Shown one piece after another: positions 3,969-63,886 of a stretch of DNA of 64,000 bases. Where the stretch lies: positions 1 through 64,000 of the IMG/VR virus record IMGVR_UViG_3300044641_007991; one strand, given 5' to 3'. The position numbers and the translations under genes are program-made. This DNA comes from a virus. Numbering within the stretch: position 1 is the stretch's first letter; every line of letters begins with the position of its first letter. The notes beneath the pieces are model-generated. The model was not told where the DNA came from. It ran no database searches and saw nothing but the letters and a program-made list of their open reading frames with translations.

Positions 3969-4514
3969 ATGGAATATATCATCATTGATACCCAAGAAGT
4001 GGTGTCACAAGGTGAGCTGAGACGTCGTAATCCAGATATTAGCTTTCCAGCAGTTTGGGGGCAAGAAGTATTAGAATTTTTGGGCGTGGCTGTTGTATTT
4101 ACAACACCTCAGCCGGAATTTGATACTGTATCGCAAATAGTGGTCCAGGGTCCCCCAATATTGACTGCTAAAGGGCATTACGAACAATCGTGGGTTGTTG
4201 TTGATTTGGATCCAGTAATCGCCCAACAAAATCAAATAGCAAAAATGGAACAGGTAAAAGCGTCAATCGTTTCGGTTGTCCAATCAAACCTTGACGCATT
4301 TGCTAAAGAAAGAGGGTATGATGGTATCTTATCAGCATGTACTTATGTCAATTCTTCTAACGACCTTTTTAAAGCTGATGGATTAAAAGCGGTTGAGTTA
4401 CGGGATGCATCTTGGGCAATTTTGTATTCAATTTTAGCTGCCGTTGAAGCAGGTACACGAGTTGTTACATCATTTTCTGATATCGAAGCTGATTTGCCTG
4501 TTTTAGAATGGTAA
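3969..4514 (+). CDS. Tail fibre assembly/chaperone-like protein
   Basis: Follows the fibre genes; LDAFAKERGYDGILSACTY...LPVLEW resembles phage tail-assembly proteins. Confidence 0.55.
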   Translation: MEYIIIDTQEVVSQGELRRRNPDISFPAVWGQEVLEFLGVAVVFTTPQPEFDTVSQIVVQGPPILTAKGHYEQSWVVVDLDPVIAQQNQIAKMEQVKASIVSVVQSNLDAFAKERGYDGILSACTYVNSSNDLFKADGLKAVELRDASWAILYSILAAVEAGTRVVTSFSDIEADLPVLEW

Positions 4515-21289: not shown

Positions 21290-21635
21290 GAAAACGGTTT
21301 ATTCTGTTTCGAGGAAAACCGCAAAAACCCAACTATAATTTTAAGCTGCTAGAGCAGTAGAATTATAGAAAGCGTCGTTTTTAGCTTCGCCATTTACTTA
21401 TTTTATGCTGATTACGTCAGTCATCTCTCGATTCTCCAGTGTTCTTTGATCTCAACGTCGAATCTGTTCACCCCCATCAGAAACACACTTAAACTGGTCC
21501 GGCAGAATTTTTTCATTCCAGTTCGTTTATGTGACCGTCGTCACTACTTAGCTGCGGCAAAAGTATGTTTCTGGTGGAGGTGGGGGAATAATGCTATCCC
21601 CGTCCGCCAAAACTATTATAACACCTTCAACGAAT
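21290..21635 (-). ncRNA. ssrA: Circularly permuted (two-piece) tmRNA
   Basis: On the minus strand the 3' acceptor CACCTCCACCA (ends 21572) precedes the 5' GGGGGTGAACAGATTCGAC (starts 21475); G3-U70 pair; tag frame 21391-21341 reads GEAKNDAFYNSTALAA*. Outer ends approximate. Confidence 0.88.
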
Positions 21636-21895
21636 ACTTTAAAATCACACTGCATAAGGACATAACGGACTCAAACCGAGTTCTTTGATACTATCTTACC
21701 TTATCGAACCTGAACACCTAGTGTGATTTTAAAAAGAGCAATACATTTAACAGAAAGAGTGAGTCGTACCAATCTGCCACCCAACAGAAACGTCAATATA
21801 ACGGCATTGTCACTTTATCTAATAGACAGGGATATTTCCGGTTATATCATACGTCCCGTTCTCGCGATGCCCGAGGGTAAATGTATTAAATTTAT

Positions 21896-45804: not shown

Positions 45805-45880
45805 AGAATAATGCTGCCTGGGATTCGAACCCATATTTTCGTTAGTTTTCCGCACGATTTTCGCGTGGCAACATTATTCC
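45805..45880 (-). ncRNA. tRNA-like element (T-arm on a 14-bp closing stem)
   Basis: GGAATAATGTTGCC...TGGG-TTCGAAT-CCCA-GGCAGCATTATTCT; no canonical D or anticodon arm, no CCA. Confidence 0.55.
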
Positions 45881-45917
45881 AAATACACAGTTATTGTACT
45901 ATACTTAGGTAAAAAAG

Positions 45918-46238
45918 TCAAGCACTTTTTAAAAATTCTTCAGCAGCGACAATTCTAATCTCACCTTTACCTGCAGCAGAATCCTCGAATTGTTGATAAA
46001 TTTCGCTCATGTACATAGTCATGCCTTCATTTTCAGTAAAACCAACGTATTTGCTGCCGCTTTCATTAACAAAAGCATATCCACTTTCCCATGTATCGCT
46101 ATCAACAATTGCTGAACTTAATCTCCAGGAATCTCCTGAGGTAAATCCACCACGCCAACCAGCCAATATTTTATAGACACATTCTGCGGATGTTTTAATT
46201 TCTAGGATAACCCAGCGATCAGGAGTATAAGTGTTCAC
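45918..46238 (-). CDS. Conserved phage hypothetical protein
   Basis: YTPDRWV...YKILAGW.GG...GDSWRLSS. Confidence 0.65.
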   Translation of the reverse strand: MNTYTPDRWVILEIKTSAECVYKILAGWRGGFTSGDSWRLSSAIVDSDTWESGYAFVNESGSKYVGFTENEGMTMYMSEIYQQFEDSAAGKGEIRIVAAEEFLKSA

Positions 46239-60556: not shown

Positions 60557-62879
60557 CCCCAGCGGTCAACCTATAGATCAATTTTACACGTTTCTGTCTA
60601 GCATGTCAAGCACTTTTTACAATTTTTTTAGGATCCGTATTTTTCCCGTAACCTAGCATATTCAGCTCGTTCTGCAGCCTCCTCTACAGCTTGCTTAGCG
60701 AGTTTTTTCTCTAACTTAGCCAAACGTAACCGTTCTGATTTTTCGAGCTGCTCTCGCTCGCGTTCTAGTCTAGCAGAGTATTCCTCATCCGTTTCTAGTC
60801 TATACAAAATCAAAGATAAATTATATCCGCCATCATAACCATAATTATTTCTATAAATTTCATGACGAGTATGATACTCTCGGATATATTTTTCTTTAAT
60901 ATCAGCAATATTTTTAGCAATACGGCACAAAAATTCATCTAGTGTTTCATCAGATTCTGGGGATAAATCATCAGTAATGTCAATGTATTCATCATATAGT
61001 ACTTCTTGTTTCATAAATTAATCCAGTAAATATGGTGCAATTTCTAAGACAACCGGTTCTGATTCAAATTCGTGAATTTCGCAAGATTTATAAATTTTCC
61101 ATTGCGCTTGACATCTATATTTTGATTGACGTTTTACACAATTAATATGAGCTTTTAATCCAGCTTCGGTCCAAGTTTTCCATTTTTAGTCCAAACATTA
61201 TGTAATCCACCTGTGGAATATAATTTACTCACAGGATCATAAATTCTATAAACTTTCATAACCACCCTCATAACACCTACACAATAAAATAAAAGTGTCA
61301 CATAATTCACATTTTTGTACGATAATCATATTAATTCTCCAACACTATTCTACCAGCAAATCTACTAAAATCGCCCATTACCCAATCTTTTCGGAATTGA
61401 CCTAGATGATAAAGTTGGTCATTAGGTGTTGGGCTTATTGATACAACCATTCCTTGATTACGTTCAGTAAATAATACCACAGGATAACCTGAATTAGCAA
61501 CCCCAAGATATGGATAAATTGATGCATCGTATAATTTTGTACTTTTCATTATTTTCTCCGATTTAAACCTGGATTATAAACCTGTGATTCTACCCAACAA
61601 GGGATTCCTAATGTACCAGCATAATTACATGCCTCATTATTTGTTGAGAATACTATAACAGCACCAGATGCATCGCGAATAATTTCGTGAGTTTTTGTAT
61701 TAACAAGATATAACATTTTAATTATCCATTCTGTGGTAAACAATACAAATCATTTGATTAGCGGATTTGCTAATTAAATCGAATCCGTCGGTAAAGGTTA
61801 ATCCATAATCATAACAAAATTGGTTCTCAGCATATTCCTGAGCTGCACCATAATCCAGAAAACCATCATCTACGCCAGTTAAAAGGATATATGAATCTCT
61901 ACCGTTAGATTGAATAATATCACCAATATGTGTATGGTTAATTTCCATTTTTCTCTCCAAGAAGGGAGGTTGACCGCTGAGGGGTCAACCTATGATTCAA
62001 TTTTACTAAAATCCCACCCAGAAGTCAAGCACTTCTTTCTCGCAGCAGGTTTTTCTAATTCAGTTTCTGTAAATAACACACCATCGTGTCTACCCAACGC
62101 AATTACATCAAATACAGCACCAGCGGCTAATTGTTTAATCTTCTCGTTCATAATCTAATCCTGTAATTTCGCTAAAGTTTCACGAGCTTGTTTAATTGCG
62201 CTATCAATTAAATCCTGAATTAAACCTGGATCATCTGTTAAAATATCTGAATAATCCGGATATAAATGTCCACCTGAATATTCCGCACCTAATTCAATTC
62301 CGCAGCGTAACGCACGAACTCGTAACAAAAACCATTTTAAATTACCCGATTCAATATCAGCTAGAATCTGACCCATATTCTCACATTCAGCATATGTATC
62401 ATTTGGCGGATAAATATCCCATGTATAATCAATAATGATATCGAAATTATCCTGAGTGCGGGTGGTTAAAACTGTGTACATATCGTATGACATATTATAT
62501 TTCTCCAGATTATATTTTAAGCACTTGTTGCTGTAGATTCTAAGATCTCATCAATTCTTCTCATAACAGCGTATTCGTACCATTCTGCTCTAAATAAATC
62601 TCCAAAGAATTTAATTGCCAATAAACGATTTTGTCTGTAAACATATAATAATGTTTCTAAGCTCAATTGACCTTGCGAATATTCATATTCAGCACAGACA
62701 ACATTTGAGATTAATGCATTAAACATTGATTGTCTTTTAGAATTTCTAGCCATTGCTCTCTCCAGTAATCTTCGATAAGGGTTGGTCAGGGAACCGTTCC
62801 CCAACCTATAGATCAATTTTACTCTAGACCGAGACTAATGTCAAGCACTTTTTTAAAATTTCAAAAAATTTTTACTCGT

Positions 62880-63435
62880 GCTAGCAGCGCGTTTTGGTAG
62901 GAGCGGGGGAATGGTATTAAAAAACGATTATCGAGGCGCTCGCAAGAGCTAGAGCAGGAAAATAGACCTGCAGGGTACAAACAGCAGGTCAGATGCCTTA
63001 GGAGAGCATAAACTAGAAGGACTCAACCTAAATGAGGAGAGAGTTCATTTAGGGAGTCCCGTATCAACCCTAGAGCCGGAGAGAGGAGGCTCTAGAGTCA
63101 GAATAGGGAGCTCAACGCGATTCGGCTGGAGAGTAACCTAATCGCGGAGCTAAAACGGTGCTAGCAAGAGGGAGAGAGCTCTAAGCGCCAGCACCGGAAT
63201 AAGGTTTGGGCTTATTGTAAAGAATAAGCCCGATAATAACCATTTATCGTAAAGAAAATAAATGGTCTCAGTATGGCGGCCATATTGCAGTATGCATACT
63301 GGAGTAGAATTAGGTTGCTCAACTGAATATACCAATTAAAAACGCATGAAATTCGCAGTAACTTGTATTTTATAGGTTTGGTATATTCAGGAGCATACAG
63401 TCTATTAAGGTTGGGAGAGAGTCAACCTTAACGAG
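62880..63435 (+). ncRNA. Structured non-coding region with six GGAGAG-loop hairpins
   Basis: GC-richer than the flanks, no credible ORF; GGAGAG in loops at 63001, 63036, 63078, 63128, 63171, 63414. Confidence 0.55.
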
Positions 63436-63442
63436 TGTTCAA

Positions 63443-63886
63443 TTAAACCCAATCTATAGATCGCTTTACAGATAATCTATATTCACAATCCGGTCCTTCT
63501 TGGTATTGTTCAATATCAGAATAATCCTCACCCATACGGATATATTCAACATTTAAGTTTAATCTTAAAGCGCAGTGAATCATGTGATTAAAGAAATCAG
63601 CACCAGATGTAATTTTTAACCAATAATCACCCCATCTAATGCTTTCACCGATAAATAAGAATTCATAACCATATTCTTCAGAGGTAAAAAATACATCTTT
63701 ATTGAGAGTGATGTTATTTGATTTACATTCTAGAGCTAAGATTTCATTTTGAATATCCTGAGATAATGAATCAAAGGTATTGGAATATAATTCACCAAAC
63801 TCAAGCATTAAATCCTGATCACCATAAATTCTAATTGCAACATCTGAACGATAACTCATATTAACGATCTCTAAGTAATTTAGCAA
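63443..63886 (-). CDS. Conserved phage hypothetical protein
   Basis: MSYRSDV...YIRMGEDYSDIE. Confidence 0.65.
   Translation of the reverse strand: MLNYLEIVNMSYRSDVAIRIYGDQDLMLEFGELYSNTFDSLSQDIQNEILALECKSNNITLNKDVFFTSEEYGYEFLFIGESIRWGDYWLKITSGADFFNHMIHCALRLNLNVEYIRMGEDYSDIEQYQEGPDCEYRLSVKRSIDWV

Follow-up and report, generated by a model that had tools for sequence, protein, structure and literature searches.

The window analyzed here is the first 64 kb (64,000 nucleotides) of a 74,280-base IMG/VR virus record with a CheckV completeness of about 29% and a GC content of 34%, which derives from a large uncultured T4-like phage. Tail-fiber and baseplate proteins, GroEL, a nicotinamide phosphoribosyltransferase, an RNA ligase and homing endonucleases are encoded in it, with structural genes on the + strand at 1-18.6 kb and all genes between 18.8 kb and the window end (64 kb) on the - strand. 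A permuted (two-piece) tmRNA of the alpha type was located at 21293-21683 (-), where it scored 85.5 bits against RF04321 and 65.2 bits against the alpha-proteobacterial model; it was not called by ARAGORN, which also reported no tRNA. The presence of an alpha-type tmRNA on the phage hints at an alphaproteobacterial or similar host. At a promoter at 45924 (-), the 5' end of the transcript forms a long hairpin enclosing the T-arm-like sequence GGGUUCGAAUCCCA (45810-45924), which resembles a tRNA-like element and likewise received no ARAGORN call.

Between a small gene without assigned function, here called gene X, and the early gene that follows it lies a non-coding array of about 560 bases (62877-63441), in which 12 hairpins (H1-H12) were identified and no credible ORF was found (Table 1). 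The GC content of the array is 0.50, compared with 0.34, and its + strand carries more G than C and more A than T. H12 starts 12 nt past the stop codon of gene X, and at the other end the array is bounded by the early promoter that drives the downstream gene. Within the AT-rich tract next to this promoter, a + strand TAAAAT at 62854-62859, preceded by the poor -35 sequence GAGACT, was the sole candidate for a + strand promoter. In the left tract, a U6 run on the - strand (62919-62924) stands behind weak hairpins and is a possible 3' end.

Table 1. Features of the hairpin array and its immediate surroundings (window coordinates)
Feature	Position	Strand	Remarks
Downstream early gene, 78 aa	62517..62763	-	ATG at 62753; ribosome-binding site CUGGAGAGAGC
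Early promoter TTGACA-17-TAAAAT	62816..62844	-	One of 33 TGCTTGAC copies on the - strand
AT-rich tract	62845..62876		UP-element-like for the - strand promoter; read from the sequence
Left tract	62877..62962		G-rich on +, C-rich on -; small hairpin at 62877-62891
H1, 7-bp hairpin	62965..62990		12-nt loop, different in relatives
H2, weak 4-bp hairpin	62993..63009		Loop CUUAGGAGA (+) / UCUCCUAAG (-)
H3, 6-bp outer stem, AA bulge, 9-bp inner stem	63019..63059		Loop GGAGAGAGU (+) / ACUCUCUCC (-)
H4, 8-bp stem plus extension	63067..63098		Loop GGAGAGAGGA (+) / UCCUCUCUCC (-)
H5, 5-bp stem, AA bulge, 10-bp stem	63109..63151		Loop CUGGAGAGUAA (+) / UUACUCUCCAG (-)
H6, 7 bp + 2 bp, interior A.C (+) / G.U (-)	63156..63196		Tip GGAGAGAG (+) / CUCUCUCC (-)
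H7 and H8, two 9-bp hairpins	63208..63266		GUAAAGAA common to both loops; H7 loop variable in relatives
H9 (8 bp, interior G.U on +) and H10 (5 bp)	63269..63301		
H11, GCUC, AA bulge, perfect 13-bp stem	63316..63395		Variable 42-nt tip
H12, 9-bp hairpin	63405..63431		Loop GGAGAGAGU (+) / ACUCUCUCC (-)
Gene X, 138 aa, no assigned function	63443..63859	-	Beside the array in both relatives

The motif GGAGAG(AG) is displayed in loops of 8-11 nt in H3, H4, H5, H6 and H12, with H2 as a weak 4-bp version, and is absent from H1 and from H7 to H11. On the - strand, a U.G pair allows H5 to gain 4 bp, leaving a 7-nt loop, ACUCUCC. The stems are nearly all perfect Watson-Crick helices with few wobbles on either strand, and they have no sequence in common, so that the hairpins look like one repeated design rather than recent copies. 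All of the hairpins listed in a preliminary description of this DNA, which had noted unlike stems with one GGAGAG loop, were present at their reported places, and by comparison with shuffles they exceed chance. A further feature, absent from that description, is a junction common to H3, H5 and H11, which consists of CUC, an AA bulge, C, a variable stem and then G-GAG.

Six perfect hairpins with stems of at least 7 bp were observed in the array, compared with a mean of 0.20 and a maximum of 2 in 1000 shuffles. Likewise, the array holds six copies of GGAGAG against a mean of 0.34, a number reached in none of 5000 shuffles. Six of the nine + strand copies of GGAGAG in the 74-kb record are inside the array, each of them in a loop, as are all four + strand copies of GGAGAGAG. 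Two of the three copies outside it were found in the spacers of early promoters (window 57209 and record 69645), where the - strand sequence reads TTGACTCTCC and TTGACTTCTCTCC, respectively. Folding of the array was strongly non-random on both strands, with z-scores of -8.9 (+) and -11.2 (-), the left tract (62873-62962) being non-significant on either (z -0.8 and -0.6).

Ribosome-binding sites of the early region

The main clue beyond the preliminary description is that the phage itself uses GGAGAG for ribosome binding at its early genes. Of the 19 GGAGAG sites on the - strand, 16 are followed after 6-10 nt by the ATG of an ORF with 30 codons or more, and one further site stands ahead of a shorter frame; these sites have the consensus (C/U)UGGAGAGA. 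The distribution of the motif was compared between the small-gene region from 53 kb onward (window 53-64 kb and the record up to 74 kb) and the remaining sequence. GGAGAG preceded 13 of 60 ORFs in the former, whereas it preceded 0 of the 94 ORFs in the latter (Fisher p = 2e-6), among them the structural genes of the + strand at 1-18.6 kb. When sites of the GGAGA type (GGAGA or GGAGAG) were counted, the corresponding figures were 23 of 60 and 7 of 94. On the gene strand, GGAGAG is thus the signature ribosome-binding site of the early-gene region that surrounds the array.

Early-type promoters of the form AAAAAG-TGCTTGAC(T/A)-N17-TA(A/T)AAT were found in 33 copies, all on the - strand, in the window from 22.5 to 64 kb and in the record up to 74 kb. 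A conserved leader is common to about ten of these promoters; it begins with AUAGGUUG(G/A), folds at its 5' end into a hairpin whose stems covary, and ends in the largely unpaired CUGGAGAGA before the ATG. The late-promoter octamer TATAAATA was not found near the array on either strand. As the array is located inside the early region, its loops correspond to the early ribosome-binding site when read on the + strand and to the complement of that site when read on the - strand. Just upstream of three of the early promoters, at record 67990-68010, 68790-68810 and 71945-71965 (-), a motif TTTATCGCTGGCGCT was also noticed, the core of which (GCTGGCGCT) recurs on the - strand within H6 (window 63183-63192).

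Conservation of the array in close relatives

The array was compared among three near-identical sequences, namely the window and the contigs L005 and L006, which were the sole matches from a profile search of metagenome contigs with gene X. In both contigs the array follows gene X, and its identity to the window is 97.2% (L005) and 97.5% (L006), compared with about 93% for the flanking genes. Nineteen positions vary, and these are confined to the left tract, the junctions and the loops of H1, H7 and H11; none of the 19 falls on a Watson-Crick stem position or within a GGAGAG hexamer. At one of them, 63096, a mismatch in H4 (C.A on the + strand, G.U on the -) is replaced by a C-G pair in the relatives. 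As stems and motif hexamers make up about 276 of 565 array positions by our own count, the chance that 19 independent changes would all avoid them comes, by our own arithmetic, to about 3e-6; counting clustered changes as about 12 events raises it to roughly 3e-4. This avoidance indicates that the hairpins and their shared loop are under constraint. In the relatives, the gene immediately downstream has a ribosome-binding site other than GGAGAG, yet H6 is unchanged there. In L006, an extra small gene (4060-4240) separates the downstream gene from the early promoter/leader, at a place that maps to the gap between window 62754 and 62806, with both array and promoter intact.

Gene X itself has 20 homologue clusters at 71-93% identity, with 18 more distant ones among P0002-P0020 (71-90% identity), and matched no Pfam or PHROG family. 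Its AlphaFold model had a mean pLDDT of 55, and a Foldseek search with this model returned generic ferredoxin-like matches only (best E = 0.05), which do not show RNA binding. The conserved C-terminus of the protein, RSIDW, is encoded at window 63446-63466 (-) by CGATCTATAGATTGG, which is close to the -10/leader start of the early cassettes, TGATCTATAGGTTGG, and may represent a fossil cassette or chance.

Searches for further copies were made at several levels. No match was obtained among GenBank phages by blastn and megablast, no homologue was recovered from IMG/VR with the flanking proteins, and a DNA pattern that describes the structure of the H3 module had no match in IMG/VR. Two matches to the H3 pattern in GTDB genomes were leucine-rich-repeat coding regions and were attributed to chance, and the 66 matches of a three-loop spacing pattern in IMG/VR were all tandem or coding repeats without hairpins. 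Seven related phage fragments, found via a structural protein, contained neither a copy of the array nor a similar one. The array was found only in the phage of this record and its two close relatives, IMG/VR, GenBank phages and GTDB genomes having added no others.

Proposed anti-Shine-Dalgarno loops on the - strand

With GGAGAG or its complement shown in six loops, the array probably controls translation of the phage's early genes. The - strand is tentatively favored as the active one, at somewhat less than even confidence. No terminator-like site was found between the promoters at 65338 and 65556 and the array, so the - strand of the array is transcribed whenever gene X is transcribed. On this strand CUCUCC is predicted to be unpaired with a probability of at least 0.97 in five of the six loops, compared with 0.52-1.0 for GGAGAG on the + strand, where the first G of the motif often pairs. 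Furthermore, the block H3-H6 folds with -80.3 kcal/mol on the - strand and -72.1 kcal/mol on the + strand (z -7.8 and -4.6), and inside H4, H5 and H6 the three positions that depart from Watson-Crick pairing read G.U on the former and A.C on the latter, the one in H4 being G-C in the relatives. The - strand also encodes the tmRNA and all genes between 18.8 and 64 kb, and the constraint on stems and motif loops counts in favor of this reading. None of H1-H12 is followed by a U-run on either strand, and no canonical terminator that would end a - strand RNA was found, leaving the U6 run in the left tract as the sole candidate 3' end.

The reading that we prefer, though only tentatively, is accordingly that of a structured - strand RNA whose anti-Shine-Dalgarno loops limit early-gene translation. 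Such an RNA would arise by read-through from gene X and might end near the U-run at 62919-62924. It would present six single-stranded loops of the CUCUCC type on hairpins with unrelated stems, and the sequence of these loops exactly complements GGAGAG(A), the site for ribosome binding that marks the early region. Pairing with early sites would take place in trans, and perhaps in cis on read-through transcripts, and each loop could engage 6-10 nt in an early start region. Ribosome binding would thereby be blocked, and early-gene translation would be limited or shut off, genes with other ribosome-binding sites being left untouched. A stable folded RNA that is made together with the early mRNAs could also outlast them and progressively close their sites, a parallel to the action of RegB/S1, which cleaves T4 early mRNAs at GGAG sites (PMC1702504). 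In this reading the hairpins, their conservation, the confinement of the motif to early ribosome-binding sites, the complementarity and the lack of an upstream terminator are observed, the active strand, the pairing and the translational effect being inferred. In agreement with a preference for early targets, predicted duplexes between loops and start regions averaged -8.0 kcal/mol for early genes and -6.0 kcal/mol for the rest (Mann-Whitney p = 0.001), and the best of these duplexes joined the H6 tip on the - strand to the gene immediately downstream, with its site CUGGAGAGAGC.

In the CcaF1-CcsR operon, a small protein gene is followed by Cuckoo hairpins on the same strand, and the array likewise follows a small protein gene on its - strand. 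The Cuckoo RNAs of Alphaproteobacteria (RSs0680/CcsR1-4, SmelC397/NfeR1) consist of 2-4 adjacent hairpins, or more where clustered, with one anti-Shine-Dalgarno loop motif, CCUCCUCCC, and variable stems (PMC4615179); the CcaF1-CcsR operon is treated in PMC8034643. On the - strand the array similarly consists of adjacent hairpins that carry the same pyrimidine loop on differing stems, six in number (H2-H6 and H12). It differs in that its loops are ACUCUCUCC, UCCUCUCUCC, UUACUCUCCAG and (A)CUCUCUCC rather than CCUCCUCCC, in that it is phage-borne, about 560 nt long and has the motif on only six of 12 hairpins, and in that neither a promoter nor a terminator of its own was found. RNAIII of Staphylococcus aureus and other sRNAs with C-rich loops use these loops to pair with the ribosome-binding sites of many targets (PMC4615179). 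The array resembles RNAIII as a long multi-hairpin RNA with several C/U-rich motif loops, whereas the loop motif of RNAIII is UCCC, there is no sequence relationship between the two, and the presumed targets of the array are the phage's own early genes.

The array was assigned to no Rfam family when the whole window was searched at gathering score. With cmscan of 62700-63600 on both strands and E values up to 10, the models for ar14, CsrB, CsrC, RsmX, RsmY and RsmZ remained unmatched, and only three weak microRNA-precursor rows were returned, on H11. The array would work like the Cuckoo/ar14 and CsrB/RsmZ families and is a member of neither: it lies outside the first because loop motif and model are unmatched, and outside the second because motif context and model are unmatched.

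The + strand and other readings

Activity of the + strand is less probable, and so is the reading that depends on it, in which an antisense RNA would serve as a decoy by showing six early ribosome-binding motifs in its loops. It would draw away whatever reads this motif, be it the 30S subunit, a RegB-like nuclease, a translational repressor made by the phage or, as the least likely target, CsrA/RsmA of the host. The loops do copy the early site together with its flank (CUGGAGAG in H5), and several properties of the + strand suit a structured RNA. It is purine-rich, with positive GC and AT skew; 49% of its unpaired bases are A, a trait of many structured RNAs; and the free energy of the whole array is lower on this strand (-201.9 against -182.9 kcal/mol). 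The interior G.U of H9 and an extension of H7 are also particular to the + strand. In addition, a 6-bp helix links the array ends (62874-62879 with 63431-63436), withstands a C-to-U change in L006 on the + strand only and is preceded by TAAAAT at a distance of about 14 nt. Two further points were considered and rejected as evidence for the + strand: the stability of the left tract (62873-62962) was no better than that of shuffles, and the extra + strand pairing in the H11 tip is broken by two of three substitutions in L005.

Against the decoy, no consensus promoter and no terminator serving a + strand RNA were found. The candidate GAGACT-17-TAAAAT was read by eye, outside the output of the promoter scan, and its -35 element matches at 3 of 6 positions; the small hairpin at 62877-62891 (+) was the only report of the terminator scan. 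The pairing of the first G of GGAGAG and the A.C mismatches in H4, H5 and H6 likewise speak against the + strand. The preliminary description had proposed a + strand sRNA opposite all neighboring genes. The neighbors are indeed encoded on the - strand, but the choice of the + strand could not be established for want of a promoter and terminator, and it is countered further by read-through of the - strand from gene X and by the cleaner display of CUCUCC. The more general idea of a regulatory nucleic acid that displays loops was of the right kind, given a conserved non-coding array with unlike stems and one loop motif.

Among the decoy targets, CsrA/RsmA had been singled out in the preliminary description, which suggested a sponge. 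CsrA sites follow the consensus A(N)GGA, with GGA centered in a short loop, and CsrA is uncommon in the host group at which the alpha-type permuted tmRNA hints. On the + strand, the array shares with CsrB/RsmZ the display of six GGA-containing hairpin loops on one RNA. It differs in keeping GGAGAG rather than A(N)GGA and in that GGA opens a loop of 9-11 nt. The base 5' of GGA in the array loops is A, C, U, G and G, conservation running instead in the 3' direction as GAG(AG), and with this base variable the loops lack the A(N)GGA setting in which CsrA binds. Together with the unmatched Csr and Rsm models and the absence of a CsrA match (PF02599) from the 74-kb record, about 29% of the genome, this makes a CsrA/RsmA sponge unlikely.

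RegB/S1 cleaves T4 early mRNAs at GGAG sites, so that GGAG tags T4-type early genes for this nuclease, and it needs 11 nt of single-stranded GGAGRAYARAA (PMC1702504). The present phage is T4-like, its early genes have a distinctive site of the GGAG(A) type that resembles the RegB/S1 site, and this site could serve as a shut-off tag. The array loops, however, are 9-11 nt long and continue as GAGU, GAGGA or GUAAC rather than as an A-rich run and so do not fit the RegB/S1 site, which the preliminary description had mentioned for GGAG. Furthermore, RegB is a protein nuclease, whereas the element described here would be an RNA that displays this motif or the complement of it, and no RegB match (PF10715) was obtained in the fragment, with about 70% of the genome lying outside it.

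It is improbable that the array is a passive structure in an early polycistronic mRNA, acting as a 3' exonuclease barrier, as a set of processing sites or as an insulator between transcription units; in that case the shared loop would simply have been inherited from a single hairpin that was duplicated. The position of the array between two transcription units with no terminator ahead, its nearly perfect Watson-Crick stems with few wobbles on either strand, and the free duplication of promoter-leader cassettes by this phage are all consistent with this reading. They leave aside that the loops are identical while the stems share no sequence, that the loops of H1, H7 and H11 vary among relatives and the GGAGAG loops never do, and that early genes have this very motif as their ribosome-binding site. 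Least probable is an element acting as DNA, with single-stranded hairpins at a replication origin, priming site or packaging site, of which the preliminary description had offered a replication or packaging site: the stems are perfect, the wobbles are split (three favoring the - strand and two or three the +) and an AT-rich tract adjoins the array, but there are no iterons and no direct repeats beyond the loops, gene orientation is unchanged, the skew shows no lasting switch, only a blip that mirrors array composition, and the loop motif has an obvious meaning at the RNA level.

Returning to the - strand RNA with anti-Shine-Dalgarno loops, both it and the + strand decoy would be instances of one arrangement, in which a private early tag, GGAGAG(A), is paired with one stable multi-loop RNA that either recognizes the tag (-) or imitates it (+). 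This arrangement is regarded as possible rather than likely. In temporal control of the T4 type, RegB cleaves early mRNAs and RegA represses them at their ribosome-binding sites. If the proposed arrangement is correct, the array would be an RNA-only counterpart of this RegB/RegA early shut-off, and a whole temporal gene class would be switchable at the level of translation. A conserved RNA with six copies or complements of the early site would then represent a different, RNA-based way of sorting mRNAs by class, for which the restriction of GGAGAG sites to the early region provides a concrete and testable set of targets. The small group of regulators that present the same loop on many stems, to which the Cuckoo RNAs, RNAIII and CsrB belong, would thereby be joined by a phage member.
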